Source: a virus
Lineage: Duplodnaviria; Caudoviricetes
Strand: one strand, 5' to 3'
Virus record (IMG/VR): IMGVR_UViG_3300042507_004218
Location: 1-61,564 of that record
DNA length: 61,564 nucleotides
Of this stretch, positions 10,917 to 30,745 are shown one piece after another; positions within the stretch are counted from its first letter, which is position 1, and the number at the start of each line of letters is the position of its first letter. Made by a program: the position numbers and the translations under genes. The notes under the pieces are model-generated. The model searched no databases. It was not told where the DNA came from and saw only the letters and a list, made by a program, of their open reading frames with translations.

Positions 10917-10971
10917 GCCTGCGTTTGTAACGGGATAGAAATCTACCCCACATTGAAGAAGGAGAAGTGAG

Positions 10972-11160
10972 ATGCAAGAAGTTTGGTTCATACGAGGCGA
11001 AGCCGTCGATGGGCTGCGCCATATGCTCTTCGCGACCAAGATGGCTGCGGAGATCTACGCTAGAAAACTCTTCCCCGATGAAGACCCGGACAGGCGCTAT
11101 GCGCGTATCTACTGCATGCCTGTCTGGGAAGAACGCGACCTCAAAGGAACCAAGAAATGA
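10972..11160 (+). CDS. Hypothetical protein
   Basis: AAGGAG RBS, 62 aa. Confidence 0.7.
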   Translation: MQEVWFIRGEAVDGLRHMLFATKMAAEIYARKLFPDEDPDRRYARIYCMPVWEERDLKGTKK

Positions 11161-11237
11161 AGATGCACCCCGACGACGCTCTGCTGCTCGCTGTCTGCGT
11201 AGCAGTTGCAGCACTGCTGGTTTTTGGTATCATTTGA
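11157..11237 (+). CDS. 26-aa single-TM peptide
   Basis: MKMHPDDALLLAVCVAVAALLVFGII, AAGGA RBS, ATGA overlap with the upstream gene. Confidence 0.5.
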   Translation: MKMHPDDALLLAVCVAVAALLVFGII

Positions 11238-11326
11238 GCAGGCACAAGCCTGCGCCCAACCGTCGCCCCTGCGGTCCAGGGGCAAACAAGCGGGGACATG
11301 ATGTCCCCATTGAAGGAGAAGCAAGC

Positions 11327-11932
11327 ATGAAGACCATCAACAAGCCCACCCCCACTGCGCTCTTCAAGGCAGCGCTCGACAGCGTCAAGCGTCGGGCCAT
11401 CATCGCGCAGCACAAGCGGGTGCTGTATGCCGCCTTCGTGCGGCTCCCGCAGGTCAAGCCCATCTTCGTCACGCTGGCCAAGGCGGCGCTGGGTGGTGAG
11501 CATCCCTGGGTCAACACCTCGGAGTACAGCGCCGAGGTGTCCCTCGGCCTGACGCTGCGCGAGCTGGAGTCGTTCAAGGACGAGCGCTTGACGAAGCTGG
11601 TGTCTGCCTTCGCGGGGGACGAGGGGACCGCCACCACGACGGACTACACGTACGACCAGCCCAACCGTGACTACCGCTTCACGATGGAGATCGAAGCTCC
11701 GCTGGCCGACCTGCTCGACGAGCAGCGTCGGGGCCTGCGCCTGACCGCTGCCGAGCAGCGCTCGCTGGCGTGGCTGCGCGAGCAGGCCCCGTACGAGGTG
11801 CCGCGCACCGTGCTGCTCACCGTGGGGATCTACGCCTACGTCAAGGCAGACAGCGCCGCCTGCCGCATCGAGGTCGTGGGCATCGAGGAGGAGGTGATCA
11901 AGAAGGAGATCAAGAGGATCGTCTGCGCCTGA
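11327..11932 (+). CDS. Hypothetical protein (201 aa)
   Basis: AAGGAG RBS after the palindrome at 11292; strong GC3 codon bias from 11327 onward. Confidence 0.75.
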   Translation: MKTINKPTPTALFKAALDSVKRRAIIAQHKRVLYAAFVRLPQVKPIFVTLAKAALGGEHPWVNTSEYSAEVSLGLTLRELESFKDERLTKLVSAFAGDEGTATTTDYTYDQPNRDYRFTMEIEAPLADLLDEQRRGLRLTAAEQRSLAWLREQAPYEVPRTVLLTVGIYAYVKADSAACRIEVVGIEEEVIKKEIKRIVCA

Positions 11933-12014
11933 CTGCGTCAGGTAGCGCCCGCTGAGCGGGCGCGTGAGCCCCCGGGGTAGAAAGCTACCCCATTCACCCC
12001 AAGGAGTAAGCAAC

Positions 12015-12224
12015 ATGCCATCCTGGCACCAACAAAACGCATTCCGACGCGACGGTTTCCCTAAGCTGTCGCACCCCACCATGTGGAGCAGCTACAACCT
12101 GCAGGGGCATCTCAGCGTCATGCGCCACGAATCACGCGAAGCGTGCATGACCTACTGCGCCAAGACGGGGGATGTCCCTCTGTCGCCTGACAACCACACC
12201 CTCGCAACGAAGAAGGAGAAGTGA
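12015..12224 (+). CDS. Hypothetical protein
   Basis: AAGGAG RBS after the palindrome at 11974. Confidence 0.6.
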   Translation: MPSWHQQNAFRRDGFPKLSHPTMWSSYNLQGHLSVMRHESREACMTYCAKTGDVPLSPDNHTLATKKEK

Positions 12225-12225
12225 C

Positions 12226-12930
12226 ATGCTATCCATCGACACCAACGCCAAGACCGTCAAGGGTCAGAAGTACGGCTACATGACAGGCGTCCTCTACCTG
12301 TCTCCGTACAACAAGTCCGGGCACAACGTCTGCCCCTTCGCCGCCATCGCCCAGTGCCACGCGCCCTGTCTCGATACTGCTGGCCGGGGCGCGTTCGACT
12401 CCGTGCAGCAGGCACGCCTGCGCAAGACGCAGATGTTCTTCGAGGACCGCGACGCGTTCATGGCCCTGCTGGTGGAGGACATCATGCGCCTGGAGCGCAC
12501 GGCCCAGGCCCGGGAGCTCGTCCCCGTGTGCCGCCTCAACGGCACATCCGACATCAAGTGGGAGCGCATCGCTGTGACCGTCAACGGCCACACTTACGCC
12601 AACATCTTCGAGGTCTTCCCGTTCATGCAGTTCTACGACTACACGAAGACGCCTGGGCGTGACGTAGCGCACATCCACAACTACGACCTGACGTTCAGCT
12701 ACTCCGGCGTGCCCGACTTCCAACGCTACGTGCGATACGCCAAGGAGAGCGGCATGCGCATCGCCGCCGTGTTCCGCAAGCGTGACGAGATCCCAGACAA
12801 GTTCCTCGGCATGGCGTGCGTTGACGGTGACGACAGCGACCTGCGCTTCCTCGACCCCCCGGGTGTCGTCGTGGCGCTGTATGCCAAGGGCCGCGCACGC
12901 CTGGATACGTCTGGCTTCGTCGTCGGCTGA
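12226..12930 (+). CDS. GP88-like protein with a three-Cys cluster (possible Fe-S / radical-SAM-like)
   Basis: NVCPFA..QCHAPCL..AGRG, RLNGTSDI, QFYDYTK, YDLTFSYS, DGDDSDLRFLD, LYAKG. Confidence 0.65.
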   Translation: MLSIDTNAKTVKGQKYGYMTGVLYLSPYNKSGHNVCPFAAIAQCHAPCLDTAGRGAFDSVQQARLRKTQMFFEDRDAFMALLVEDIMRLERTAQARELVPVCRLNGTSDIKWERIAVTVNGHTYANIFEVFPFMQFYDYTKTPGRDVAHIHNYDLTFSYSGVPDFQRYVRYAKESGMRIAAVFRKRDEIPDKFLGMACVDGDDSDLRFLDPPGVVVALYAKGRARLDTSGFVVG

Positions 12931-13061
12931 CAACATGCAACGGGGACATGTTGTCCCCGTGTCTTTTACTATCAACAAATCCCCGCAGTGTGCTACACTG
13001 CAGCCGCGCCTCGGGTTTTCAGGGGCACATCGGGCCAAAGGCCCATTGAAGGAGAAAGCAA

Positions 13062-14051
13062 ATGGCTCATCAAATCGACACCACCTCCCGCGCCACCGCT
13101 TCGTACGCCTCCACCCGCAAGGAGTGGCACGGCCTGGGGCAACTCATGCCCGCTGGCGCCGACCTCGACGCCTGGGCCCAGGCGGCGAACATGGACTACA
13201 AAGTCCTCCGCGCCTACCCGCGCTACGCCGTGGAGCGCATCAACCCCGAGGCTTCCCACATCCCTGCGAGCGCCTTGCGTCAGGTCGAGGACAAGGTCGT
13301 GCTGTTCCGCAGCGACACCCGCGCGCCCCTGGGCGTGGTCAGCGACGGGTACAAGGTCGTGCAGCCCCGGGAGGTGCTGGAGTTCTTCCGCGAGTGGGCG
13401 GACGCAGGCGGGCTCACCATCGAGTCCGCAGGCGTGCTGTTCGGGGGCAAGCGCTACTTCGCCACGGCTCGCCTGGGCGAGGCAGTGGCCGTGGACGGGG
13501 GCCAGGACCGCATCCTGCCCTACGCCCTGCTCTCCACCTCCGCTGATGGCTCCCTGGCCACCGAGGGGCGCTGGACGACCGTGCGCGTGGTGTGCAACAA
13601 CACCCTGAGCATGGCCCGGGAAGGCGCCACAGCCTTCCGCCTGACGCACCGCAGCGCATGGAAGCCGGAGAAGTTCAAGACCATCATCGAGGACGCCCAG
13701 CACGAGTTCGCCTCCTTCATGGAGACGAGCCGCAAGCTGGCGGCAATCAAGGTCGAGACGAAGCTGGCGGAGGAGATGACGACGCTGCTGCTCACCACAG
13801 CCGCGCGTGATGCGGACGCCGCCAAGGAGAGTGCCGGGTTCCAGCGCATCATGGGCCTGTTCCAAGGCACCGCCAAGGGCGCACTGCTGGAGTCGTCGCG
13901 TGAGACTGCCTGGGGGTGGCTGAACAGCGTCACCGAGTACGTGGACCACCATGCGCGTGCTCGCAACGACGAGAACCGCACCGCCAGCGCCCTGTGGGGG
14001 CAGGGCGACGCGCTGAAGAATCGGGCAGTGGAGATCGCACTGGAGGCGTAA
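13062..14051 (+). CDS. DUF932 family phage/plasmid protein
   Basis: MAH start, WHGLG, RSDT..PLGVVS..YKVVQ, SAGVLFGGKR, TTVRVVCNNTL, TAWGWLNSVTEYVDH. Confidence 0.85.
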   Translation: MAHQIDTTSRATASYASTRKEWHGLGQLMPAGADLDAWAQAANMDYKVLRAYPRYAVERINPEASHIPASALRQVEDKVVLFRSDTRAPLGVVSDGYKVVQPREVLEFFREWADAGGLTIESAGVLFGGKRYFATARLGEAVAVDGGQDRILPYALLSTSADGSLATEGRWTTVRVVCNNTLSMAREGATAFRLTHRSAWKPEKFKTIIEDAQHEFASFMETSRKLAAIKVETKLAEEMTTLLLTTAARDADAAKESAGFQRIMGLFQGTAKGALLESSRETAWGWLNSVTEYVDHHARARNDENRTASALWGQGDALKNRAVEIALEA

Positions 14052-14085
14052 GCTGCGCGTGGCGCAGTCGCAACGCGACTGCGTT

Positions 14086-14134
14086 TGTCAACCCCTTGAC
14101 AACATGAATCGGGAGGCCCACAATCGGGCCTCCC
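14086..14134 (+). promoter_or_regulatory. Sigma70-like promoter overlapping a TGTCAA-N4-TTGACA palindrome
   Basis: TTGACA at 14096, 17-bp spacer, CACAAT at 14119. The -10 lies mostly in the loop of a GGGAGGCCC/GGGCCTCCC inverted repeat. Confidence 0.6.
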
Positions 14135-14156
14135 TCAACCCTCAATGGAGTCTCAC

Positions 14157-14429
14157 ATGACTTTCAAGATCGAGTCCGGCATCCCCCTTCCCAAGCGCAC
14201 CTCCGTCGGTCGCAAGGGCACCGAGTTCCCCTTCGCTGACATGGACGTTGGCGAAAGCTTCCTGATGCCCTGCGACATCAGCGAAGAGAAGAACATCGTC
14301 AATTGGCGGCGCAAGCTGGCGTCTGCTCGCAAGCGCTTCGAAGAGAAGAGCGACTACGACATCGAGCTGCGCACCGCCGTCGTCTCCGACGACCGTGGCA
14401 CCGGGGTTCGTGTCTGGCGCACTGCCTGA
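14157..14429 (+). CDS. Small putative DNA-binding protein
   Basis: FKIESGIPLP...FPFADMDVGESF...GVRVWR, a pattern common in small phage proteins. Confidence 0.7.
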   Translation: MTFKIESGIPLPKRTSVGRKGTEFPFADMDVGESFLMPCDISEEKNIVNWRRKLASARKRFEEKSDYDIELRTAVVSDDRGTGVRVWRTA

Positions 14430-14435
14430 CAAGCA

Positions 14436-14485
14436 CTACGCGCCCGCGCTACGCGCCCGCGCTACGCGCTCCGCGCTACGCACTC
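14436..14485. repeat. Tandem 13-14-bp repeat CTACGCGCCCGCG (about 4 copies)
   Basis: Units start at 14436, 14449, 14462 and 14476 (last one degenerate). Intergenic. Confidence 0.85.
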
Positions 14486-14595
14486 AACGCTCTGCTCTCG
14501 CAGGGCGTTTTTGTTGGCTAAACGTTCAACATCCCGCAGGGGCAGGGTGTTTTTCATGGCCGCTTAAAGCGCGGCACAACTAGGAGAGAGTAAGC

Positions 14596-14751
14596 ATGAA
14601 GACCAAGATGCTGACAATGTCCCGTCGCCTGTGGAACACGGGCGACACGCGCCTTGACCGGCGCAATCAACGGGCCTGGGTGCAGGCTGTTCGGCGGCTC
14701 GGGAGCCGCTGGCTGCTGGCAGTGCCGGTGGAACGGAAGGAGCAGCAATGA
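14596..14751 (+). CDS. Small Arg-rich hypothetical protein
   Basis: AGGAG RBS; MKTKMLTMSRRLW...RAWVQAVRRLGSRWLLA; ATGA overlap. Confidence 0.65.
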   Translation: MKTKMLTMSRRLWNTGDTRLDRRNQRAWVQAVRRLGSRWLLAVPVERKEQQ

Positions 14752-15026
14752 CCACCGAAGACGAAATCCGCCGCACGCTGCACCCGGAGGCTTACAAGAC
14801 CATGGAGTTCAACCCCAAGCCGCGCCCGCGCATCCCTCTGGGCTGCGACCAGCAGGGCAGATACCCGCAGGCTGCGGAGCAGCCGCAAGCTGCTGAACCC
14901 TGCATCGACTTGGACGAGGTCGGAGGCCCTCCCGAGCCGCCACCGGAGCCGTGGTGGCCGTACATCCTCGGGGGCATCTGCGCCATCCTGGCGCTGGTGC
15001 TGATCTTCGTTCCGATGGGGGTGTGA
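14748..15026 (+). CDS. Hypothetical protein with a C-terminal TM helix
   Basis: AAGGAG RBS; WWPYILGGICAILALVLIFV. Confidence 0.7.
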   Translation: MTTEDEIRRTLHPEAYKTMEFNPKPRPRIPLGCDQQGRYPQAAEQPQAAEPCIDLDEVGGPPEPPPEPWWPYILGGICAILALVLIFVPMGV

Positions 15027-15027
15027 G

Positions 15028-15240
15028 ATGAAACTCACACCATGGTTCCCCGGCACCGTCAAGCCGGTGCGCGTTGGCGTGTATGAAAGGCAGTACTTTC
15101 GGGAGCAGCTCGAAACCCGTTATTCCTATTGGAGCGGCTACAAATGGTCTACATGGGCGCCAACCCCGAAGGGGGCCCTGGATCTTTGGTATACGGTAGG
15201 CGCGCTCCAAGACCTCCCTTGGCGCGGAGTGCTGAAATGA
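15028..15240 (+). CDS. Trp-rich hypothetical protein
   Basis: TPWFP..VKPVRVGVYER...YSYWSG..W...WRGV. Confidence 0.7.
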   Translation: MKLTPWFPGTVKPVRVGVYERQYFREQLETRYSYWSGYKWSTWAPTPKGALDLWYTVGALQDLPWRGVLK

Positions 15241-15368
15241 CCCTCAATCCCAAAGCCTTCCTCCGGAGGTGCTTTGCCTGCAACCGCGACATGCGCGACC
15301 ACCCGGGCAGCAGTATGCGGCGGGGGATTTGGAGATGTGCGAAATGCACGAAGAAAGGAACCCAATGA
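15237..15368 (+). CDS. Small zinc-ribbon protein
   Basis: CFAC...CAKC, ATGA overlaps on both sides. Confidence 0.55.
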   Translation: MTLNPKAFLRRCFACNRDMRDHPGSSMRRGIWRCAKCTKKGTQ

Positions 15369-15850
15369 CTACGATCACCATTGACCGCGCCGTCGTTGAG
15401 CAGGCGCTGGAGGCGTTGGAGTACGCGCAGCAAGATCGCGAATGCCCAAGCACAACCCGTCAGGCAATCGCCGCCCTCCGCGCCGCCCTGGCGCAGGAGC
15501 AGGACGAGCCAACTGGTAAGCAACCCTTACAGGTTGAGTCGGTGGCAACAACTCAACAACCCGCTGGCGAAACGCCCCCGTCCGACTATCGGCGCGGCTA
15601 TTGGGACGGATTCAACATCGGCAAACGCGAGGGGCGCATTGAGGCAGAAGACGCCTTGGCGCAGCAGGATGAGCCGGAAACCTGCACTTGGTATCAAGAC
15701 GGCGACAGCGACTCAGGCGTTTACGCCACCTCATGTCGGCACTACTTCAACCTTGAAGATGGTACGCCAGAGGACAACAAGATGCAGTGGTGCTGCTACT
15801 GCGGCAAGAAGCTGGTGCAGGAACTGATTACGGAGGGCGACGATGAGTGA
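15365..15850 (+). CDS. Modular hypothetical protein (repeat-jointed array, member 1)
   Basis: QALEALE / LRAALAQ / QQDEP motifs; C-terminal Cys-rich module (CCYCGKK). Confidence 0.7.
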   Translation: MTTITIDRAVVEQALEALEYAQQDRECPSTTRQAIAALRAALAQEQDEPTGKQPLQVESVATTQQPAGETPPSDYRRGYWDGFNIGKREGRIEAEDALAQQDEPETCTWYQDGDSDSGVYATSCRHYFNLEDGTPEDNKMQWCCYCGKKLVQELITEGDDE

Positions 15851-16127
15851 CCTACGAACCGCCGCCCAGCAGGCGCTGGAGGCGTTGGATGAGGCCGACA
15901 CGTTTCACCGCAACCTGTCAGATCAGCGCGCGCGCAGGCTTGCCGCAATGGCCGCCCTCCGCACCGCCCTGGCGCAGCAGGATGAGCCGACACTCACCAT
16001 CGAGCGCCTGCGCGATGCGCTCGTGGCGTCTCGCATCATCCCGCCCGCAGCGGTCGAAGACCCGGACGAATACGACGATGGAGTGACTCTGCATCGCATC
16101 GAAGCACTGCACAGGAGGATCGCATGA
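15843..16127 (+). CDS. Modular hypothetical protein (array member 2)
   Basis: MSDLRTAAQQALEALD...LRTALAQQDEP. Confidence 0.7.
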   Translation: MSDLRTAAQQALEALDEADTFHRNLSDQRARRLAAMAALRTALAQQDEPTLTIERLRDALVASRIIPPAAVEDPDEYDDGVTLHRIEALHRRIA

Positions 16128-17074
16128 ATGACCTACGAACCGCCGCCCAGCAGGCGCTGGACAGCATCAACGAACTGTTTGCCGCCGAACAGTCAGAAGG
16201 CGGAGAACGTGGCGGACATATCCGCACACCGGCCACGCGAGAGCATTTGGTGCGTGTAGCTCAGGCTCGCAAGGCTTTGCATGAAAGCTGCGGCGCCCTC
16301 CGCGCCGCCTTGGCGCAGCGGGCCGAGCTGGTGGAGCCGGTGGAGCCGGTGGATGTGGGGCTGCTTGAGTACCGAGGCAACAGCGTGGCTTTCATCCATC
16401 AAAAAATGACGGCATATCGAACCGGGATTGATGTCGCGTGGGATGCCTTCAGAGCAAAGGGACTGCATCCTGACGGCAAAACGTCATTGGCCGACATGAT
16501 CGCAAAGTACACCGCCCCACCGCAGCAGGCCGAGCCGGCGCAGGGGCCAGAAGGTATGGTTGAGTTCCTGGCCGATCTGCAACGCAGTCGGACGAAGTAC
16601 CCGAAGAACAGGCGCATGTTCGACGGCCTGATGGGCGAGATTGATGAGTTGCGCCGCGCCTACGCTGGCGATGGCGACATTCGTGCCGAAGCATTCGACG
16701 TTGCCGTGTGTGCTTTCCGCATTGCGACCGAAGGTGACGCAGGCGGTAACGCCCGGTTGGAGCAGGCCGAGACGGATCATGAAACCCGAGCCGAACTGGC
16801 GGAGCAGCAGGTTGTGCAACTTGCCGAGGAGCGCGATCACTACCGTAACCTGTGGCAGAAGGCGCAGCAGGATGAGCCGCAACCCATGCACCCTGAACTA
16901 CGAAAGATGTGGGAGGACCACTTCGACAAGTGTTTCAGGGCTATCCCTGTGCCGGAGCAGGCCGAGCCGGTGCAAATGCACCCGTCTCAATTTGCAGAAA
17001 TGATCAAAGGTAAGGAGGCCATGACCGGCATCCCGGTGTACTGGGCCGAGTGGCCGAACAAGGAGGAATCATGA
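16124..17074 (+). CDS. Modular protein with an internal MazG-like module (array member 3)
   Basis: MNDLRTAAQQAL start, several QQAEP/QQDEP joints, internal GEIDEL...AEAFDVA (ExxE...ExxD). Confidence 0.7.
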   Translation: MNDLRTAAQQALDSINELFAAEQSEGGERGGHIRTPATREHLVRVAQARKALHESCGALRAALAQRAELVEPVEPVDVGLLEYRGNSVAFIHQKMTAYRTGIDVAWDAFRAKGLHPDGKTSLADMIAKYTAPPQQAEPAQGPEGMVEFLADLQRSRTKYPKNRRMFDGLMGEIDELRRAYAGDGDIRAEAFDVAVCAFRIATEGDAGGNARLEQAETDHETRAELAEQQVVQLAEERDHYRNLWQKAQQDEPQPMHPELRKMWEDHFDKCFRAIPVPEQAEPVQMHPSQFAEMIKGKEAMTGIPVYWAEWPNKEES

Positions 17075-17562
17075 CTGATCTGAGAGCCGCTGCCCAGCAG
17101 GCGCTGGAGGCGTTGGAGAAGTACCGCAAGATGATGTTTGTGGAAGCAGGGTGTCGTTTTGGCGAAGGCGATGCAGCCATCACCAACCTCCGCGCCGCCT
17201 TGGCGCAGCAGGCCGAGCCGGTGGCGGGAAAGGTTGTAGCGTGGGGCGTGTTCGCCAACATCGACGGCGAATGGCAGTTGCAGCACCCCGTGTTCGCGGG
17301 TGACGAGCAGGGCAAGGTGAACGCTGAGTTTGAGCGCGCATCGTACAGCGGCCCGCAGCCGCTAGAAGTGCGGCCTCTCGGTGTCGTGACTGCTACGGCA
17401 CGGCAGGCCGAGCCGGCGCAGGAGCCGGTGGCGACGCTGATCGCTCAGCGCGATGCGCTGCTGGAAATGCTGAAACTGGCCCGATCCATCATCGGCCACC
17501 CGGATGACGCGCACTCACAGATGATCGACGCCGCCATCAAGGCGGTGGAGGAGGAAGCATGA
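17071..17562 (+). CDS. Modular hypothetical protein (array member 4)
   Basis: MTDLRAAAQQALEALE...LRAALAQQAEPVA...QAEPAQEPVA...DAAIKAVE; AGGAGG RBS. Confidence 0.7.
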   Translation: MTDLRAAAQQALEALEKYRKMMFVEAGCRFGEGDAAITNLRAALAQQAEPVAGKVVAWGVFANIDGEWQLQHPVFAGDEQGKVNAEFERASYSGPQPLEVRPLGVVTATARQAEPAQEPVATLIAQRDALLEMLKLARSIIGHPDDAHSQMIDAAIKAVEEEA

Positions 17563-17801
17563 AGAGACTGAGCTACTACCCGGCCCGTGCCGCAGTGAAG
17601 ATCACAAGCATCGTCCTCATCTCGCAGATCATGGTGGAGATGGGCGGGCCTGTATCGCGCAAGCCAGAGTTCTGGTGGGTCATTTATGCGTGCGCCGGAG
17701 CATTTGTCCTGTCCGCGCTCTACGCGATTGCGGTCGTCGTGCGGAATGCATGGGTGGAATACTGCGACGCCATCAAGGCGGTGGAAGGAGAAACCAAATG
17801 A
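17559..17801 (+). CDS. Hypothetical membrane protein
   Basis: Two hydrophobic segments; ends DAIKAVE like the previous gene. Confidence 0.6.
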   Translation: MKRLSYYPARAAVKITSIVLISQIMVEMGGPVSRKPEFWWVIYACAGAFVLSALYAIAVVVRNAWVEYCDAIKAVEGETK

Positions 17802-17917
17802 AACGCGAGTACGTTATTTCTATTGACTCAAGCAGGGGCTCATCAGTGTTGGGGCGCTTGGTGCGCGCGCTGCTGTTTTGGCCCCGTTGGATTCTGACCG
17901 GAAAGGCTGAGCTATGA
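17798..17917 (+). CDS. Small hypothetical protein
   Basis: AAGGAG RBS, ATGA overlaps. Confidence 0.5.
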   Translation: MKREYVISIDSSRGSSVLGRLVRALLFWPRWILTGKAEL

Positions 17918-18183
17918 ACCGAGATGACATCATCCGCATGGCGCATGAAGCAGGCTGGTCTGGTGTCTTCGTCATTGAATGGGCCAAACAGCCTGACGAG
18001 CATCCAGTGGAGAAAAGCCTGCCCGTGCCGGTGACGATGGAGCAGATTGAACGCTTCTTCCGCGCAGCCTACGCTGCCGGCGCCGCTGCCGAGCGCGAGG
18101 CGTGTGCGAAGATAGTAGAAACGCATCAATGTACGGGCTGGGGCATTCTTAGTGCCGCCATCCGCGCAAGGAGCAAGGAATGA
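17914..18183 (+). CDS. Hypothetical protein (EREACA...AIRAR family)
   Basis: MNRDDIIRMAHEAG...AEREACAK...AAIRARS. Confidence 0.7.
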   Translation: MNRDDIIRMAHEAGWSGVFVIEWAKQPDEHPVEKSLPVPVTMEQIERFFRAAYAAGAAAEREACAKIVETHQCTGWGILSAAIRARSKE

Positions 18184-18386
18184 ACCTACAAGTGGAGTTG
18201 ACCAAGTTGCTCATAGAGAGCTACGACCGTGGCGTCAAGGACGCAACGCAAGCCGCGATTGAAAGCTTCCAGGAGGCCATGCGTTTGGAGCGCGAGGCGT
18301 GTGCCCAAATTGCCGACGCCGAGGCCAGCATCGAGGGCATAGCGCAGCGCATAGCTGCCGCCATCCGCGCAAGGGGGAACACATGA
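18180..18386 (+). CDS. Hypothetical protein (EREACA...AIRAR family)
   Basis: LEREACAQIA...AAAIRARGNT. Confidence 0.65.
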   Translation: MNLQVELTKLLIESYDRGVKDATQAAIESFQEAMRLEREACAQIADAEASIEGIAQRIAAAIRARGNT

Positions 18387-18715
18387 ACGAACCGACCAGA
18401 GAACAAGTAAGAAGTCTGACAACGCAAGCAGTCCGCATGACTGTGGACGATTTTGCAATCAATGGGTTTGCCATCCCGAAGGATATTGAGGCAAACATCA
18501 CCGAAAAATACGAGTTTATCTACTACCTTGTGAAGTTTGCACAGGAGCAGGAGCGTGAACGCATCATTTCCGTAGCACAGTCTCGCCTAGACCACGAAAG
18601 AAGCGCCCTGGCGCACAACCTCTATCGGTGGCACGCCGCAAGCGAATGGCACCAAGCGAGGTGCGGCGGCATGGAGGACATGCTTGCCGCCATCCGCGCA
18701 AGGGGAAACACATGA
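18383..18715 (+). CDS. Hypothetical protein (ERERII...AIRAR family)
   Basis: QERERII...LAAIRARGNT; ATGA overlaps. Confidence 0.65.
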   Translation: MNEPTREQVRSLTTQAVRMTVDDFAINGFAIPKDIEANITEKYEFIYYLVKFAQEQERERIISVAQSRLDHERSALAHNLYRWHAASEWHQARCGGMEDMLAAIRARGNT

Positions 18716-18930
18716 ACAACACCGAAATCTTCAGCGTAGCCGAGCGCATGGCGAGCCATTACGTATCTGGCTATTGCTTCGACCACGCAGACATTGCTGC
18801 GTTTGCACGATGGGCAGCGGGGCAGGAACGCGAACGCATCATTCAGTTCCTGCAAGAAATGCAGCGGCAGGCTGGAGACGCGCACAACCACTACGGGCAC
18901 GCTGCGGTACGGATCAAGGAGGGTGTATGA
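18712..18930 (+). CDS. Hypothetical protein
   Basis: QERERII motif; ATGA overlaps. Confidence 0.6.
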   Translation: MNNTEIFSVAERMASHYVSGYCFDHADIAAFARWAAGQERERIIQFLQEMQRQAGDAHNHYGHAAVRIKEGV

Positions 18931-19106
18931 ACACCGTGCTTGTCTGGGTGCTGGTCACTTTTGGTGGATCCAGCAGTAGCGCCCTTGTGTATAGTCCTCC
19001 CATGCCAGATAAGGCGATGTGCGAGCAACTGCAGAAGAGCATTGTTGAAACTCGAAATCAGTTCTACATGCGCTGCGTTCAAATCAGAATGGTGGTGATC
19101 AAATGA
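18927..19106 (+). CDS. Small exported/membrane protein
   Basis: Hydrophobic N-terminus, two Cys, AGGAGG RBS. Confidence 0.6.
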   Translation: MNTVLVWVLVTFGGSSSSALVYSPPMPDKAMCEQLQKSIVETRNQFYMRCVQIRMVVIK

Positions 19107-19426
19107 GCGACAGGGAAATGCTGGAGTTTGCTGCGAAGGCGGCGGGGATTGATCTTCAGGAAACTGAAGATGGCTTCGAAGCGGATTTTGATGATTCTAG
19201 AGTATGGAACCCCCTCGCCGACGACGGCGATGCGTTGCGACTGATGGTATCTATAGGCATCAGAGATTACTTTGGTCTTGAGGTACAAAAACACTGCGTT
19301 CAAGCAACTTGTTTTGAGCCGTGGGAGCACTGCGAGTATGAGGAGTACAAAAACCAAGACCCCCTCGCCGCCACCCGCCGCGCTATCGTCAGGGCTGCGG
19401 CAGAAATTGGGAGGCAGATGCCATGA
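19103..19426 (+). CDS. Hypothetical phage protein
   Basis: DREMLEFAAKAAG...WNPLADDGDALRL...ATRRAIVRAAAEIG, a common phage family pattern. Confidence 0.75.
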   Translation: MSDREMLEFAAKAAGIDLQETEDGFEADFDDSRVWNPLADDGDALRLMVSIGIRDYFGLEVQKHCVQATCFEPWEHCEYEEYKNQDPLAATRRAIVRAAAEIGRQMP

Positions 19427-19572
19427 CCCGCGAACAATACCTCAACATCCTGATGCTGCTTAATGTTATGGAGGCACTAATGCAGGCGCACAAAACGCCC
19501 TTCCCTCCCTATCTCATCGGGAGCCTGGATGAGGCCGTGAAAATATTGCGCGAGGAAATCCTGAAAGAATGA
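19423..19572 (+). CDS. Small hypothetical protein
   Basis: GGAGG RBS, ATGA overlaps, 49 aa. Confidence 0.55.
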   Translation: MTREQYLNILMLLNVMEALMQAHKTPFPPYLIGSLDEAVKILREEILKE

Positions 19573-19799
19573 AATGCCCCCACTGCACCCGTGACGGCAA
19601 GAGCCAAGTGCTGGAGAGCCGCCCCGCTGACGGGCAGATCTGGCGCAGGCGCCTGTGTAAACTGTGCCTGAAGACTTTCGTCTCCTGCGAAACCGCTGAA
19701 CCCGGCATGACCATGCCTACGCAGACGCAGTCGCGGCACAGGCTCAAGGATCGCACCCCCAAACCCGAAGACCGCAACCTCAACTGGAGCAAGAAATGA
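19569..19799 (+). CDS. NrdR-like zinc-ribbon protein (no ATP cone)
   Basis: MKCPHC...SQVLESR...IWRRRLCKLCLKTFVSCE matches the NrdR N-terminal ribbon. Confidence 0.7.
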   Translation: MKCPHCTRDGKSQVLESRPADGQIWRRRLCKLCLKTFVSCETAEPGMTMPTQTQSRHRLKDRTPKPEDRNLNWSKK

Positions 19800-19966
19800 A
19801 CCCCCTCGCTCAAGAACTCAACGCCACGACGCGCACGCTGTCCGCACCCTGGCCGTTTCCTGTTAGCATCACGGCCACCATGACCTACGCCAACAAGCAA
19901 CCGCCTACCCCGCGCCCGCCTACCAAGGCCGAGCGCCTCGACGCCCTACCTCCTGCACTGTTCTGA
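19796..19966 (+). CDS. Small Pro-rich hypothetical protein
   Basis: GGAG RBS, ATGA overlap, 56 aa (APWPFP...PPALF). Confidence 0.55.
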   Translation: MNPLAQELNATTRTLSAPWPFPVSITATMTYANKQPPTPRPPTKAERLDALPPALF

Positions 19967-20116
19967 CGAGCGGCGCAGTTGCTACACAGCGGTTCTAGCC
20001 TCGCAGATGTGAAGCCCCTGTGTACCGTTCGCGTCGCCGCTCGTGGTGAACGAACGTGAACGGACCTCCTTAACCTAGAACTCGCGGGAGGCTAGGAATC
20101 TGCGTTCCCTCCCGCA
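19966..20116 (+). ncRNA. Candidate multi-pseudoknot structured RNA
   Basis: At least five complementary segment pairs in a 150-nt intergenic gap (detailed in findings). Confidence 0.6.
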
Positions 20117-20133
20117 CCTAACAAACACACACC

Positions 20134-20436
20134 ATGGCAAAGACACCAGAAAAACGAGTCAAGGATGCGTGCGTCGAAGTGCTAAAAGCTTTCAACGCGT
20201 ATTACTTCTTCCCCGTCATGGGCGGCTACGGACGCTCCGGTATCCCGGACATCATCGCTTGCTACAAGGGCTACTTCATCGCCATCGAGTGCAAGGCGGG
20301 GTTCAACACAACCACTCAACTACAGGAAAGGGAGCTAAAAGCTATCGCCGCTGCGGGCGGCATCACCCTGGTGATCCGCGAAGACACAATCGATCTGCTC
20401 CGACAGGAGCTTAGGAGAATCAAGTATGGAGAGTGA
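20134..20436 (+). CDS. VRR-NUC domain nuclease (Holliday junction resolvase-like)
   Basis: PEKRVK...GIPDII...FIAIECKA...LQERE...AGG. Confidence 0.85.
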   Translation: MAKTPEKRVKDACVEVLKAFNAYYFFPVMGGYGRSGIPDIIACYKGYFIAIECKAGFNTTTQLQERELKAIAAAGGITLVIREDTIDLLRQELRRIKYGE

Positions 20437-20731
20437 CAAGAACGAACGCGCAGTCGAGTTTATGGCGGGCTCACTGCGACAACTGCTCATGATTATTGAT
20501 AAGCAAGGCGGGGACGCCGAAGAAGTAAAGCATATGCTCTGCCAGAGCCTGTCTTACGTCATGCTGGCCATGTTGGGTGAGAGTGCTTGCGGCGTCTTCG
20601 TCTATCTAGACGAGCACAGCACGCTGCGTATCAACGCGCTGGCCATGCCGCCAGAGGATGCGATGCAGATGTTGCGCCACGCCGCAGATCGCATACAGAA
20701 CCACCTCCCAGAAGCAGGAGAACTGCATTGA
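20426..20731 (+). CDS. Hypothetical protein
   Basis: AGGAG RBS; overlaps both neighbours. Confidence 0.65.
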   Translation: MESDKNERAVEFMAGSLRQLLMIIDKQGGDAEEVKHMLCQSLSYVMLAMLGESACGVFVYLDEHSTLRINALAMPPEDAMQMLRHAADRIQNHLPEAGELH

Positions 20732-22713
20732 GCCAACCCTTCGACACCATCATCGCGCTCGACTTCGAAACGGCCTGGGGCCGCAAGGTGGAGCTGGGCT
20801 TCTCCTGCCAGACCAACGAGGAGTACATCCGTGACCCACGCTTCAAGGCGTGGGGGCTGTCGTGGAAGACCGTGGGCACCGATGAGATCCCCGTGTGGAT
20901 CCGGCACGACCGCATCAAGCGCTGGGCCGCAGGGTTCGACTGGTCCCGCACTGCCGTCGTCTGCCAGAACACCCAGTTCGACGGCACCATCCTGGCGTGG
21001 ATCTACGGCATCCACCCGTGCTTCATGTTCGACACCCTGGCCATGGGCCGCGCCCTGTACGGCGTCGAGGTGGGCAACAGCCTGAAGGCTCTGGCCGAGC
21101 GCTTCGAGCTACCGCCCAAAGGCGACGGGCTGAGCCCGTCGGAGAACGTCCTCGACGATCTGCCCTTCCACGTGGAGCAGACCCTGGCCGACTACTGCAA
21201 GCATGACACGTGGCTGTGCGAGCAGATCTTCCTGCGCATGCTGCCGCAGTTCCCATCCAAGGAGCTACGCCTCATCGACATGACCCTGCGCATGTACACG
21301 CGCCCGCTGCTGCGCCTGGACAGCGAGATGCTGCAGGGCGCCATCGAGGAAGAGCGCACGGCCCGGGAGGGCCTGCTGCAACGCCTGGGTGTGGCCGAGG
21401 CGGCGCTCGCGTCGAACGATCAGTTCGCTGAAGTGCTCAAGACCTTGGGCGTCGATCCGCCCGTCAAGAAGAGCAAGACCACGGGCCAGGAGACCTGGGC
21501 GTTCGCCAAGAATGACGCGCTGTTCCAGGCGCTGGTGAACTCCGACAACGAGGAGGTCGCGCTCCTGTGCGAAGCACGCCTGAAGGTCAAGAGCACCACC
21601 GAGCGCACCCGGGCGCAGCGGTTTCTCGACATCTCCACGCGGGGCAACCTGCCGGTGCCCCTGAGCTACTACGGCGCAGCCACGGGGCGCTGGACGGCCA
21701 GCAAGGGCTCGGCCATCAACATGCAGAACCTCAAGCGCGGAAGCTTCCTGCGCAAGGCCATCATGGCGCCCGAGGGCCACGTGCTGGTGGTCGGAGACCT
21801 GTCGCAGATCGAGCCCCGCGTGCTCGCATGGCTGTCGGACTACGACGACCTGCTCAACATCTTCCGGGCCGGCGGCGACCCCTACGCCCAGTTCGGCGCC
21901 CCGATGTTCGGCATCCCGGGCATGACCAAGGACAGTCATCCGACGCAGCGCCAGAGCGCCAAGAGCGCGCTGTTGGGGGCCGGGTATCAACTGGGCTGGG
22001 CGAGCTTCGCCGCGCAACTTCTGACGGGCTTCCTGGGCGCCCCGCCCAAGCGCTACTCCAAGGACGAGGCCAAGCAGTTGGGCGTGACCGGGGCCGACGT
22101 TCAGAAGTTCCTGTCCTGGGATGAGAACCTCAAGGCCATGGCGGAGATCCCGCACACGTGCTCCGAGCTTGATCTTGCGATCCACTGCCTTGCGGCCAAG
22201 GCCATCATCGACAAGTACCGCGCCACGGCCACGCCGGTCGTGGGCTTCTGGAGCCTGCTCGGGGAGTTGATCGAGCACGCGCTCTACCGGGGCAACGAGT
22301 ACCAGCACAAGTGCCTGACCTTCCGCAAGGAGGAGATCGTCTTGCCAAGCGGCATGAGTCTGAGGTATCCTGACCTCAAGCCAGAGGACGGACCGAAGGG
22401 TCGCGTTCAGTGGACCTATGCCGATGGGCGCAACGGCAAGCGCGCCAAGCTCTACCCCGGCAAGATCTGCAACAACGTGACCCAAGGCACGGCCCGCTGC
22501 GTGATGACGGACGGCATGCTCCGCGTCGCGAAGCGCTACCCGGTGGTGGGTACGGTCCACGACGAGCAGATCGCCGTGGCGCCGGCGGCGGAGAAGGACG
22601 AGGCCAAAACGTGGGTTTTGGCCCAGATGGTTGCGACCCCGTCATACCTGCCGGGGATACCGCTCAACGCAGATGTAGGAGCACATGAGAGATATGGTCT
22701 CGCAAAAGGATGA
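20728..22713 (+). CDS. polA: DNA polymerase family A with 3'-5' exonuclease domain
   Basis: ExoI ALDFET; motif A DLSQIEPRVLAWLS; motif B RQSAKSALLGAGY; motif C TVHDE. Probable TTG start with AGGAG RBS. Confidence 0.92.
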   Translation: MSQPFDTIIALDFETAWGRKVELGFSCQTNEEYIRDPRFKAWGLSWKTVGTDEIPVWIRHDRIKRWAAGFDWSRTAVVCQNTQFDGTILAWIYGIHPCFMFDTLAMGRALYGVEVGNSLKALAERFELPPKGDGLSPSENVLDDLPFHVEQTLADYCKHDTWLCEQIFLRMLPQFPSKELRLIDMTLRMYTRPLLRLDSEMLQGAIEEERTAREGLLQRLGVAEAALASNDQFAEVLKTLGVDPPVKKSKTTGQETWAFAKNDALFQALVNSDNEEVALLCEARLKVKSTTERTRAQRFLDISTRGNLPVPLSYYGAATGRWTASKGSAINMQNLKRGSFLRKAIMAPEGHVLVVGDLSQIEPRVLAWLSDYDDLLNIFRAGGDPYAQFGAPMFGIPGMTKDSHPTQRQSAKSALLGAGYQLGWASFAAQLLTGFLGAPPKRYSKDEAKQLGVTGADVQKFLSWDENLKAMAEIPHTCSELDLAIHCLAAKAIIDKYRATATPVVGFWSLLGELIEHALYRGNEYQHKCLTFRKEEIVLPSGMSLRYPDLKPEDGPKGRVQWTYADGRNGKRAKLYPGKICNNVTQGTARCVMTDGMLRVAKRYPVVGTVHDEQIAVAPAAEKDEAKTWVLAQMVATPSYLPGIPLNADVGAHERYGLAKG

Positions 22714-22942: not shown

Positions 22943-23186
22943 AAGCGTCCGGGGCCCGCGCGGCTCCGTCGGGCGTGTGGACTACAAGTCCCGCACCATC
23001 GACATCGCCGTCCTCAACTACTGGACCGGCGAGAAGCTGCCTGACGCAGAGGTCAGCGATACGTTCTGGCATGAGGTCACGCATGCCATCCTCGAGAACA
23101 TGGACCACCCGCTGTACCGAGACGAACGCTTCGTAACCGCCTTCGCCAACCGGCTCAACGAAGTGGTGTCAACCGCCAAGCTCTAA
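22884..23186 (+). CDS. Small HExxH metallopeptidase-like protein
   Basis: TFWHEVTHAIL followed by a downstream E (DERFV); AAGGAG RBS. Confidence 0.7.
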   Translation: MLIPKSFKLGNRPYQVRVTKSVRGPRGSVGRVDYKSRTIDIAVLNYWTGEKLPDAEVSDTFWHEVTHAILENMDHPLYRDERFVTAFANRLNEVVSTAKL

Positions 23187-23854
23187 TGGAAATCAAGCCC
23201 ATCACGTGGTCACACTCAGCGCTCAAGAAGTACGAGCAGTGCCCGCGCCAATACCACGAAGCGATTGTTCTGAAGAAGTATCCGTTCAAGGATACTCCGC
23301 AGACGATCTACGGCAAAGACCTACACAAAGCTGTGGAGCTTTACGGCAGGGACAACACGCCCCTGCCGCCTCAGTTCGCGTTCGTCCAGCCGGTGGTGGA
23401 CGCGCTGCTCGCCAAGCCTGGGCGCAAGTTGTTCGAGCACGAGATGGGCATCACGCCTGACCTGCGCCCCTGCGCATTCGACTCCAAGGAGCGCTGGGTA
23501 CGGGGCATCGCAGACTTGCTGATCATCGACGACGACAACCTCACGGCGCGAGTCGCGGATTGGAAGACGGGCAGCCACAAGTACCCGGACTTCGACCAGC
23601 TTCGCCTGATGTCGCTGATGGTCTTCGCGCACTTCCCGCACATCCGGCGCGTGAACTCGGCGCTGCTCTTCGTCGTCAAAAACCACATGGCCAAGTACCG
23701 CATGGACAGAGACGATGCCGAAGCAGCTTGGCAAGACTACCGCGAGCGCGTGGCCAAGCTGGAAGGCAGCTTCGCGCATGGCGTGTGGAACCCGAAGCAA
23801 TCGCCGCTCTGCGGCTGGTGCCCGGTGAGAGAGTGTTCATTTCATCCGAATTGA
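23186..23854 (+). CDS. PD-(D/E)XK exonuclease (RecB/Cas4-like)
   Basis: WSHS..CPRQY, RGIADL, VADWKTG, C-terminal CGWCP...C. Confidence 0.88.
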   Translation: MEIKPITWSHSALKKYEQCPRQYHEAIVLKKYPFKDTPQTIYGKDLHKAVELYGRDNTPLPPQFAFVQPVVDALLAKPGRKLFEHEMGITPDLRPCAFDSKERWVRGIADLLIIDDDNLTARVADWKTGSHKYPDFDQLRLMSLMVFAHFPHIRRVNSALLFVVKNHMAKYRMDRDDAEAAWQDYRERVAKLEGSFAHGVWNPKQSPLCGWCPVRECSFHPN

Positions 23855-26150: not shown

Positions 26151-27149
26151 GTGAGCAATATCGCACTCTTTTCTTCGTCCAACGTTCCGGCATTCGCCAA
26201 GAAGCAGGAGCTGTCGGCACTGGCCAAGTCGCTCTCGGGCGGCGCTGGTGGCGGCGGCAAGCGCATCTCCATCAAGGGCGGCGTGTTCCGCCTGCTGGTG
26301 GACGGCAAGGAAATCGCCGCCATCGAGGAGCGCTACCTCGATGTGGTCCTGGTGAACGCCGCGCCCAAGATCGGGCGCACGTTCTACATGAAGACCTACG
26401 ATGGCGACACGCCCAGCGCCCCGGACTGCTGGAGCGCCGACGGCGAGAAGCCCGACGCCACCGCTGCCAACCCGCAAGCGTCGAACTGCGCAAGCTGCCC
26501 GCAGAACGCCAAGGGCTCGGGGCAAGGCGACAGCCGCGCCTGCCGCTTCAGCCAGCGTCTGGCCGTGGTGCTGGCCAACGACATCGAGGGCGATGTCCTG
26601 ATGCTGCAGGCGCCTGCGGCGTCGATCTTCGGCAAGGCCGAGGGCGAGAACATGCCGCTCCAGGCGTACGCTCGGTTCCTGGCGGCGCAAGGCGTGTCCC
26701 CCGAGACGGTGGTCACCCGGATGAAGTTCGACACCAAGGCGGAGGCGCCCAAGCTGTTCTTCAAGCCCATGCGCTGGCTGACCGAGGAGGAGTACGCCGC
26801 TGCGACGCAGCAGGGGCAGAGCCCGGAGGCCAAGCAGGCCATCACGATGACCGTGGCGCAGATGGACAAGGTGGCTGCTCCTGCTCCCATGGAGCTTCCC
26901 GGCAAGCCCCCGCAGCGCGCGGCTGCGCCCGCCCCTGCCCCGGCGCCTGCGGCTGAGGATGATGACGAGCCCGCGCCGCCCCCGCCGCGTCGTGGCCGTC
27001 CGCCCAAGGCTGTCGTCGAGGCCCGCAAGGCCGCAGAGGCGGCTGCAGAGGAGCCGCCCGAGCCGGTCGTCCAGCGTGCGCCTGCCCCGCCCGCTGCCGC
27101 GCCCAAGACCCCGCTTGCGAAGCTCGCGGAAGATTGGGATGATGAGTGA
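26151..27149 (+). CDS. Putative ssDNA-binding/annealing protein
   Basis: GTG start with AAGGAG RBS; four-Cys motif, Pro/Ala linker, acidic C-terminus EDWDDE; located in the replication module. Confidence 0.6.
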   Translation: MSNIALFSSSNVPAFAKKQELSALAKSLSGGAGGGGKRISIKGGVFRLLVDGKEIAAIEERYLDVVLVNAAPKIGRTFYMKTYDGDTPSAPDCWSADGEKPDATAANPQASNCASCPQNAKGSGQGDSRACRFSQRLAVVLANDIEGDVLMLQAPAASIFGKAEGENMPLQAYARFLAAQGVSPETVVTRMKFDTKAEAPKLFFKPMRWLTEEEYAAATQQGQSPEAKQAITMTVAQMDKVAAPAPMELPGKPPQRAAAPAPAPAPAAEDDDEPAPPPPRRGRPPKAVVEARKAAEAAAEEPPEPVVQRAPAPPAAAPKTPLAKLAEDWDDE

Positions 27150-30519: not shown

Positions 30520-30745
30520 GCGGGGGCAGGGCTTCTTCGTTCCCGCGCTTGACCTGGACGCCATGCGAGAAGCGGGACTGCTGGCTGCAGTCCCGCTGCG
30601 CTTGAAGGACGCCCGCGCTACCTACGGCATCAGGGACGGGCAGCTTGGGGTGCTGTTCTACCGGAAAGCCCCTGCACGGCCTGAGCGAGACGAATCTTCG
30701 CCTGACGCGCCCGGTCAAGCTCCGCCCGCTTCCGATCAGGCGTGA
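30488..30745 (+). CDS. Small protein resembling the 14157 family
   Basis: FPWDKLERGQGFFVP...GVLFYR; GAGG RBS. Confidence 0.6.
   Translation: MPSYFPWDKLERGQGFFVPALDLDAMREAGLLAAVPLRLKDARATYGIRDGQLGVLFYRKAPARPERDESSPDAPGQAPPASDQA

Follow-up and report, generated by a model that had tools for sequence, protein, structure and literature searches.

How can a row of adjacent small genes share short stretches of nearly identical DNA in one reading frame while the sequences between those stretches are unrelated to one another? The question is raised by a gene array beginning at position 15365 of the window, by which we mean the whole stretch of DNA analyzed in this study, namely the complete IMG/VR virus record IMGVR_UViG_3300042507_004218 (Duplodnaviria; Caudoviricetes; linear, 61,564 bases; completeness estimate of 97%). 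Five consecutive genes of the array are designated here as genes A to E (Table 1). An earlier note, made from the letters of this DNA alone, had regarded the locus as an integrase-free system of in-frame module shuffling, in which microhomologies of 20-30 bp let the phage recombination proteins add, delete, and swap protein modules and thereby produce a combinatorial library of effectors. From the comparisons described below, we consider it likely that the locus is part of a chain of small accessory genes coupled in translation, which are assembled from exchangeable coding modules of ~17-80 residues delimited by a few in-frame joints and are shuffled at those joints.

Joints and modules in the array

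Genes A-D all encode an N-terminal module of ~50 residues that comprises helix 1 (pattern M-x-D-L-R-x-A-A-Q-Q-A-L-E-A-L; ITIDRAVVEQALEAL in gene A), a variable loop of ~17-47 residues, helix 2 (pattern A-I-x-A-L-R-A-A-L-A-Q), and a Gln/Glu/Pro (Q/E/P) linker. The conserved stretches of DNA, hereafter termed joints, lie on the gene start and helix 1 (J1), on helix 2 and the linker (J2), on the first helix of a C-terminal hairpin (J3), and on the gene end (J4). Four further Q/E/P joints of the QQAEP, QQDEP, and EQAEP types split gene C into the modules C2-C6. In J4, the final codons of the C-terminal hairpin (AAIKAVEE) double as a GGAGG-type ribosome-binding site and are followed by ATGA. The N-terminal module is confined to A-D, and gene E, which encodes a hydrophobic stretch as judged by eye, has only the end joint in common with them.

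AlphaFold2 modeled the N-terminal module as a helical hairpin. The model of gene B (mean predicted local distance difference test score, pLDDT, of 76) contained helices at residues 4-20 and 25-44, a linker, and a helix at 53-93, while that of gene D contained helices at 2-26 and 31-48 (N-terminal) and at 120-141 and 147-162 (C-terminal hairpin; pLDDT ~90), with the middle module at a pLDDT below 50. The models show the hairpins as predicted separate helical units linked by low-confidence linkers. A predicted complex of two copies of the N-terminal hairpin received a score of 0.25 (mark 0.42), which counts neither for nor against dimerization.

The joints are non-random. With 100 dinucleotide-preserving shuffles of the window as the reference, the 21-nt joint had four matches (0.00 expected), the QQ[DA]EP joint seven (0.14 expected), and the N-terminal joint three (0.00 expected), and all of the matches in the 61.5-kb genome were confined to 15.3-17.5 kb on the + strand. 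A repeat search recovered a 26-nt linker family of 11 copies, a 49-nt family of five, a 47-nt gene-start family of four, and an end-of-gene family common to genes D and E. The identical tracts in the window were up to 32 nt and the repeat families up to ~47 nt in length, so that the term "microhomologies" in the earlier note understates the joints. The repeat strings quoted there were all present when their exact positions were recomputed (with shifts of 1 nt at two sites), and the inserts were indeed lower in G+C content (58.0% over 1751 nt) than the joints (71.4% over 686 nt). GCAGG(AT/CC)GAGCCG recurred in seven exact copies rather than about eight. Likewise, the repeats do span 15365-17801 and four consecutive genes, A-D, but the array extends further, into gene E with its end joint and into a second set of paralogues at 17914-18930 with joints of its own. 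Its members have in common the N-terminal motif MNRDDIIRMAHEAG and an internal EREACA joint, and they end in AAIRARG(NT/SKE) with the ATGA overlap. The second set belongs to the same module pool as genes A-D, as is seen from P0025, P0027, and P0029 (below).

Joint-bounded differences between relatives

We gathered 40 related viral loci via the DUF932 gene upstream of the array, which is the conserved anchor of all of them, and six metagenome loci via protein D (loci and proteins are hereafter given L and P numbers, respectively). The backbone of DUF932, an endonuclease-like gene, and a DNA polymerase was kept in this order, while the 4-8 kb in between differed in nearly every related locus; a fixed colinear arrangement was thus not found. 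A hidden Markov model (HMM) of the hairpin, iterated over all open reading frames (ORFs) of the loci, detected 30 hairpins, of which four were in the window and the remainder in 21 of the 41 viral loci (L002-L042), with one to four per locus.

Two near-identical loci locate the differences precisely. L043 matched window positions 16183-17226 at 99.8% identity and then diverged inside J2, where the identity runs through CTCCGCGCCGCCTTGGCGCAGCAGG, is interrupted by CC versus AT, and resumes over a common GAGCCGGTGGCG, beyond which the sequences are unrelated. L043 rejoined the window at CAGCGCGATGCGCTGCTGGA in J3 (17443-17554, 98.2%) and at the end joint J4 (17765-18390, 92%), and the breakpoints flanking gene E on both sides fell in J4 copies. 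As the exits and re-entries lie in joints, the middle of gene D and gene E were each replaced between two joints. L047 matched window positions 15206-16340 at 99.3% (99.2% over the part scored in the match-end analysis below) and diverged within the J2 of gene C. Among its ORFs, genes A and B were unchanged, and the hairpin of gene C was kept with an unrelated tail; the middle module of gene A was reused in another gene, and the C-module of gene B stood behind a different hairpin. The breakpoints in J2 are at ~17213-17226 in L043 and ~16310-16318 in L047. Similarity to L043, L042, and L046 restarted at J3.

The same pattern was seen across the fetched loci. Blastn matches of at least 100 nt between window positions 15365-18400 and all of the fetched loci had 35 internal ends, 32 of which lay within 5 nt of a joint, the joints so defined covering 33% of the stretch (binomial P of 8e-13); these ends are non-independent, L005 and L006 are duplicates, and conserved joints inherently stretch matches to their far edge. 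As a separate observation, at 7720-8676 of L007 the end joint (AIKA...AKAEGGS) continues in frame into MTTLREAAQQALEAL; a single ORF of 318 residues with two hairpins here unites a pair of genes that other loci keep apart.

The modules were found to combine with various partners among proteins as well. A word-indexed search with residues 1-52 of protein D yielded 56 proteins at E <= 0.001 among 967 candidates, of which 37 were examined together with representatives from the profile search described below, and 14 window modules were compared by blastp with all of the fetched proteins and ORFs. The D hairpin was fused to the C-module of gene B in P0003, P0006, and P0014 (the junction reading AQQAEP followed by TLTIERL), to the Cys-rich module of gene A in P0023, and to modules of the second set in P0025, P0027, and P0029; second-set modules also stood behind N-terminal hairpins in P0070. 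The D loop occurred behind an A-type helix 1 in P0007, P0008, P0010, P0013, and P0014. In total, it was found in 36 proteins. The 25-mers downstream of it comprised 29 distinct ones, which is an upper bound because register shifts inflate the number, and at least nine kinds of N-terminus preceded it. The C-module of gene B turned up in 12 further proteins, behind ~10 distinct partners (of the 11 clusters, two represent the same hairpin offset by one residue). Three of the four matches to the A loop lay behind another helix 1 (P0143, P0115, and P0125), and the Cys-rich end of gene A recurred behind other hairpins in P0023 and P0196. As for gene C, C2 recurred in P0070 and P0143, C3 in P0089, and C5 in P0143 and P0184; in P0143, C5 precedes C2, the reverse of the order in the window. 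The matches of the D middle module, C4, and C6 in the blastp comparison were confined to near-copies of the window itself.

By these alignments, near-identical genomes are shown to differ by joint-bounded cassettes, and individual modules to recur beside many partners and in a different order. It is hardly credible, therefore, that the genes arose by plain tandem duplication and then diverged where they stand, with the common strings reflecting ancestry and no module having been exchanged. Four adjacent genes on one strand with common N-termini are what tandem duplication would leave, but the inserts are mutually unrelated and are met elsewhere beside other partners and in a different order, and the near-identical genomes differ by whole cassettes.

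Conservation of the joints was then assessed at the codon level over the aligned identical residues of the two helices, with the expectation taken from the codon usage of the long genes in the window. Among the four paralogues, the codons were identical at 86 of the 105 identical residues, compared to 38.5 expected, and between the window and its relatives at 936 of 1417 (66% vs. 36% expected). Rare Leu codons were position-specific: CTA in 10 of 15 cases (3% genome-wide), TTG in 11 of 19 (12%), and CTC in 18 of 27 (22%). One Ala column was GCG in 25 of 26. Thus, the codons of the joints are conserved beyond codon bias, rare codons included, and the conservation is not at the protein level only. 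Altogether, the joint-bounded cassettes, the recurring modules, and the conservation of the joints at the DNA level support module shuffling at the joints as an evolutionary process. The core claim of the earlier note, in-frame module shuffling, is therefore sustained by relatives that are not colinear and by joints conserved as DNA, and L043 and L047 hold other modules with their breakpoints inside joints.

We propose that the joints, as 20-50 nt of near-identical DNA in the same frame, would serve as homology for recombination, either within one genome (between paralogues) or between co-infecting relatives. As the joints are near-identical in the same frame, recombination can replace, add, delete, or reorder modules with the frame and the translational coupling intact, and repeated exchange would in turn keep the joints alike. 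Homologous recombination across in-frame identities of 20-50 nt seems to be the most economical reading.

Points against shuffling and the alternatives

Several points weigh against this reading. Even if selection acted on nothing but the peptides of the hairpins and linkers, domain boundaries, and hence the ends of similarity, would come to lie at the joints. The orthologous DUF932 gene has 49-74% identical codons in 16 loci while the joints have 66% between genomes, and therefore the joints are no more conserved between genomes than a strongly biased orthologue; this comparison is uneven because those of the joints are all-against-all between paralogues with unrelated loops, and the codon bias of the DUF932 gene is much stronger (G+C content at third codon positions, GC3, of 0.89 vs. 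0.69-0.75). All of the sequences, the window included, are short-read metagenome assemblies, and joints that are alike over 20-47 nt might in principle mislead an assembler into producing chimeras. No listed contig bridged genes A, B, and C in the four runs described below. No annealing protein or recombinase was recognized in the phage by the PHROG, Pfam, and NCBIfam scans. Finally, no module of A-E matched a family of known function, and the P0038 insert described below is the only exception among the relatives searched. Chimeric short-read assembly at the joints is the main caveat to the shuffling of modules.

The first of these points corresponds to an alternative in which recombination was illegitimate, only in-frame products with junctions at domain boundaries survived, and the joints were conserved for their peptides alone. 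Illegitimate recombination followed by selection is the classic model of mycobacteriophage mosaicism, and the N-terminal hairpin is a genuine protein element with wide conservation (it matches 6032 clusters and is N-terminal in 144 of the 150 top matches). Nevertheless, we regard this alternative as quite unlikely, as rare codons are fixed position by position and a 32-nt identity links genes B and C although the peptides diverge directly after it. Moreover, the near-identical genomes cross over within stretches of exact identity, and spikes in community depth (>=95% DNA identity) are confined to the joints.

The latter observation comes from Logan contigs (k=31) of four runs from four studies, which were aligned to 14000-20500 and interpreted only in the parts covered by contigs. 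The contigs ended or overlapped inside joints (the X2 pieces were 15534-15877, 15994-16158, 16132-17118, 17092-18111, and 18082-19126), and the depth in joint bins was 47-4270x (15736-15952) and 25-889x (17906-18122), compared to ~5-10x alongside. Some contigs linked non-adjacent joints (15988 to 17421; 18111 to 18357-18360), and back-joins led from an AAIRARG gene end into an AAQQALEAL start at 17089-17095. The short-sided joins would come from other organisms, and many other genomes have the joints in common at >=95% identity. Since the joints break k-mer assemblies, mis-assembly or fragmentation of such loci is to be expected in many viromes.

Contigs that break and branch exactly at the joints would also be expected if assemblers crossed between co-occurring phages there, in which case L043, L047, and many of the database proteins, most of whose matches derive from contigs of 0.5-3 kb, would be chimeric. 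We assign an even lower likelihood to such an artifact than to illegitimate recombination. The exact identity tracts are at most 32-47 nt, and the final k of the usual assemblers exceeds such lengths. Distant relatives (DUF932 protein 60-79% identical) are too diverged for long exact tracts outside the joints, and they have their own, different module sets in the same interval. The variant genes recur in independent sources: P0002 consists of four member sequences from two sources and is one residue, in a joint, from L043, and the P0012 and P0017 genes are present in L044 and L045, respectively. Furthermore, single contigs cross several joints with 0 differences in D-E (X3 16777-17943; X2 17092-18111), C (X2 16132-17118), and A (X3 15291-15872), and these confirm the matching parts of the window arrangement in other samples.

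As for the enzymes, we detected a PD-(D/E)XK nuclease at 23186-23854 (E of 2.3e-17) and a weak match to an Hjc-like resolvase at 20134-20436 (21.7 bits, cut-off 21.1), and sequence searches of two unannotated ORFs of 320-330 aa (26151-27146 and 10967-11929) against PDB returned nothing. As no annealing protein was recognized, which enzymes act can only be inferred, and the phage recombination proteins named as agents in the earlier note are not borne out. Neither was a dedicated system established, as opposed to what recombination would ordinarily bring about between short, conserved stretches of coding DNA. The strikingly uniform joints, together with the PD-(D/E)XK nuclease, an HNH endonuclease, and the weak Hjc-like protein, might suggest a programmed generator of diversity that works in each infection by a site-specific recombinase, a diversity-generating retroelement, or a dedicated nuclease. 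Such a generator is very unlikely, however: no integrase, invertase, transposase, or reverse transcriptase was matched among the 42 larger ORFs of the window (PHROGs, E <= 1e-5; small ORFs left out), the joints are direct in-frame repeats and not inverted sites, no pair of template and variable repeats with adenine-specific differences was found, and the variation is between genomes, not within one.

Genomic setting, family, and comparison with known systems

The positions of the genes, modules, and joints are given in Table 1. A 39-codon ORF (MKREYVISID...) at 17798-17917, ATGA-coupled between gene E and the next paralogue, was also kept in L043, where the DNA across it is 92% identical.

Table 1. 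Genes, repeat strings, and joints of the array in the window
Feature	Position	Strand	Description
Gene A	15365-15850	+	161 aa; N-terminal hairpin (15365-15511), middle module, Cys-rich C-terminal module
End of gene A middle module	15662-15676	+	closes in QQDEP joint
Gene B	15843-16127	+	94 aa; N-terminal hairpin and 45-residue helical C-module (TLTIERL...)
Gene C	16124-17074	+	316 aa; long-loop N-terminal hairpin and five more modules, C2-C6
Gene D	17071-17562	+	163 aa; N-terminal hairpin, middle module (17221-17415), C-terminal hairpin (AQRDALLE...AAIKAVEEEA)
Gene E	17559-17801	+	80 aa; ends in AIKAVE end joint as gene D does
Second paralogue set	17914-18183, 18180-18386, 18386-18715, 18715-18930	+	four small translationally coupled genes
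32-mer repeat	15849, 16130	+	exact copies
N-terminal joint CAGGCGCTGGAGGCGTTGGA	15401, 15870, 17098	+	
21-nt joint CTCCGC(G/A)CCGCC(C/T)TGGCGCAG	15476, 15957, 16298, 17188	+	
GCAGG(AT/CC)GAGCCG (QQ[DA]EP)	15664, 15977, 16525, 16867, 16957, 17208, 17403	+	7 exact copies
Gene-end string GCCATCAAGGCGGTGGA	17533, 17769	+	closes two adjacent genes
Joint J1	15843-15889; also 15374-15420, 16124-16170, 17071-17117	+	gene start and helix 1
Joint J2	17172-17224; also 15460-15509, 15941-15990, 16282-16352	+	helix 2 and linker, L-R-A-A-L-A-Q-Q-[AD]-E-P-V
Internal Gln/Glu/Pro linker joint	16513-16538; also 15652-15677, 16855-16880, 16945-16972, 17391-17439	+	QQAEP
Joint J3	17446-17465; weaker copy 16010-16026	+	AQRDALLE, first helix of C-terminal hairpin
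Joint J4	17529-17556; second copy 17765-17792	+	AAIKAVEE, Shine-Dalgarno-like GGAGG, ATGA stop/start overlap

The phage genome codes for a large terminase, a portal, virion proteins, DNA polymerase I, a helicase, a primase, and a 2,700-residue ORF. Its DNA polymerase is at most 31% identical to those of deposited phages (the top match being Rhizobium phage RHph_TM3_14A), no match to the deposited phages was found by blastn of 14000-19500, and no lysogeny gene was detected in the scan of the larger ORFs. The focal stretch was present wholly or partly in 24 listed runs of 19 studies, which are mostly labeled as lake or other freshwater metagenomes (six as "fungus metagenome", some as estuary or unspecified); the phage thus belongs to an uncultured freshwater lineage. 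The array is contained in a run of + strand genes from ~14.6 to 20 kb with stop/start overlaps that are mostly ATGA. Directly upstream of this variable operon, at 13062-14429, are DUF932 / TIGR03299 "phage/plasmid-like protein" (E of 3.9e-53 and 1.1e-74) and a DUF7303 protein. In a scan of 12000-21000, promoter-like sites numbered two (1.7 expected) and terminator-like sites 12 (7.5 expected); none of them coincided with a joint, and no such site inside 14.6-19 kb was above background.

Outside the array, the gene at 19103-19426 matched phrog_5086 (E of 1.4e-29). The bin 19208-19424 reached a depth of 715x in run X5, compared to ~3-30x alongside, and part of this gene is therefore common to many other genomes in the X5 sample. 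The 2,700-residue ORF (30630-38735, - strand), whose final ~390 residues matched phrog_18222 (function unknown, E of 4.5e-29), may encode a giant virion protein or an injected protein. An HNH endonuclease gene (phrog_99, E of 9.9e-63) was found among virion genes at 50188-50676 (- strand).

The hairpin defines a large family. A profile built from 17 hairpins was searched against the representatives of protein clusters at 50% identity and matched 6032 clusters at E <= 0.001, with 254 still matched at E <= 1e-10. Of the 150 top matches, 144 start in the first 10 residues, and 148 are of proteins of 51-333 aa. Two long matches, P0059 (2709 aa) and P0077 (933 aa), are repetitive and owe their scores to 13-15 short stretches; P0077, a perfect tandem repeat, resembles an out-of-frame or low-complexity translation, and both are probably spurious members. 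No Pfam match above the gathering score was found in A-E, and no NCBIfam match in A-D. The PHROG matches of the focal proteins were weak (phrog_10312 for the Cys-rich end of gene A, E of 1.2e-4; phrog_7931 for gene B), and four of the 32 relatives searched matched PHROGs, weakly and all of unknown function. Neither D nor P0015 had a tblastn match among 50,697 deposited phage records. In 185,579 species genomes, one locus carried a DNA pattern that extends from J1 to J2; it lies on a contig of a Pseudomonadota metagenome-assembled genome with phage-like neighbors, which gives no host assignment. Foldseek of the gene B model against PDB and BFVD retrieved generic helical bundles only, none at E <= 0.001, and the peptide motifs AAQQALEAL, YTAPPQR, LRAALAQ, and QEPVAW were not found in the searched literature. 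ESM Atlas offered DUF1380 (0.85, 0.76) and DUF551 (0.75) for B and P0015, all below the bar of 0.9 and thus leads only. As a large family that lacks an entry in both Pfam and NCBIfam, has only marginal PHROG matches, and, for the two proteins queried, has no counterpart among deposited phages, these proteins represent sizeable viral "dark matter" with a simple grammar.

With regard to function, the term "effector" in the earlier note is not borne out, as no module matched a family of known function, except an insert in P0038, a metagenome protein of the hairpin family, resembling the C-terminal domain (CTD) of RNA polymerase alpha. This insert (residues 103-134; PF03118, E of 1.8e-6, 28 bits, cut-off 23.8) is the only module with a named family, and RNA_pol_A_CTD was the sole match when Pfam was searched at relaxed thresholds (E <= 0.01-0.1) in A-E and 31 relatives, with no toxin, immunity, or secretion family. 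It may hint at a host-directed role, as may the position of the array, a variable region in one coupled operon between the DUF932/TIGR03299 gene and the replication genes, which fits host-directed accessory proteins. We suppose that the diversity serves interaction with the host, most likely in an arms race. The hairpins would then be constant scaffolds or partner-binding ends and the inserts variable specificities.

Among the known systems, the closest in layout are the promoter-early stem-loop (PeSL) cassettes, by which modules are shuffled in the hyperplastic regions of phages of the T4 type (Arbiol et al., 2010, PMC2839356; Comeau et al., 2014, PMC4122927). These are described as short conserved cassettes repeated across small non-essential genes, they carry the expression signals of the next gene, and related phages differ by cassette-bounded insertions, deletions, and replacements. 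Cassette-bounded differences between close genomes were also observed here (L043, L047, and the 32 of 35 match ends). On the other hand, PeSLs are described there as an intergenic promoter plus terminator, while the joints in the window are coding, in frame, inside genes as well as at junctions, and are accompanied by a Shine-Dalgarno sequence plus ATGA. No intergenic sigma-70-like early promoter with a stem-loop terminator was seen at the joints, which lie inside ORFs or over ATGA. As the joints are coding and in frame, protein domains are therefore shuffled, not only whole genes.

A bolder version of our proposal, which we consider unlikely but more plausible than any of the alternatives above, is that the joints constitute a standard "connector set", conserved at the codon level and kept by second-order selection across the freshwater phage community, and that the array is a combinatorial repertoire for host takeover or anti-defense, with the hairpin docking all variants onto one partner. 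If this were true, hairpin cassettes with translational coupling and in-frame Q/E/P linkers would recombine thousands of modules into new multi-domain proteins, both within phages and between co-infecting ones, and the connector set would do in coding sequence, for protein domains, what the PeSL system does in T4.

In the gp38 adhesins of T-even phages, hypervariable segments lie between conserved glycine-rich motifs (Trojet et al., 2011, PMC3157838). In both cases, as the adhesins are portrayed in that source, conserved short coding motifs frame swappable variable segments in one reading frame, and recombination between the motifs exchanges the segments that set specificity; gp38 is, however, a single virion protein whose function is known and whose segment number is fixed, while the window has an array of small non-structural genes in which the number and order of modules vary. 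The array has no sequence relation to gp38, and the focal proteins had no Pfam or PHROG match to an adhesin. Conserved "His box" motifs of gp37 are also said, in work of 1998 attributed to Tetart and colleagues, to swap adhesin specificity. In lambdoid phages, boundary or "linker" sequences and relaxed recombination by Rad52-like recombinases have reportedly been described by the groups of Clark (2001), Martinsohn (2008), and De Paepe (2014). Short conserved boundary sequences would act there, as here, as crossover points between unrelated DNA, but mostly at gene boundaries and in temperate phages with a known annealing protein, in contrast to the mostly intragenic joints in the window.

Recent and ongoing sharing of fragments between unrelated phage proteins has been interpreted as a signature of an arms race (Smug et al., 2023, PMC10684548). 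The array resembles this mosaicism in the ongoing sharing and differs from it in that the family consists of small unannotated accessory proteins. Genes A-D also recall the polymorphic toxin systems (CdiA, Rhs), in which a pre-toxin motif is conserved and orphan cassettes occur (Zhang et al., 2012, PMC3482391): the N-terminal part is constant, a junction motif is conserved, and the variable C-terminal modules are exchanged by recombination with cassettes. In A-E and the 31 relatives, however, no toxin, immunity gene, secretion domain, or orphan cassette in the sense outlined there was found. Shufflons, invertases, and diversity-generating retroelements differ from the array, as no such PHROG was present among the 42 larger ORFs and the joints are direct repeats.

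The exchange of phage modules at short conserved sequences has long been accepted, and here it can be read at single-nucleotide resolution inside genes, where a few in-frame joints connect small protein modules from a very large pool that lacks annotation; genomes with 99% identity in their common flanks already differ by exchanged cassettes. The array offers a tractable natural system for the share of short-homology recombination in new multi-domain proteins, and it also suits the question of whether the conservation of connectors at the DNA level is itself selected. Compared to the systems above, what is distinct here is that one small connector set is used both at gene junctions, together with translational coupling, and inside genes, and that, in an unannotated family encountered only in metagenomes, this set governs the number and order of modules in the array.

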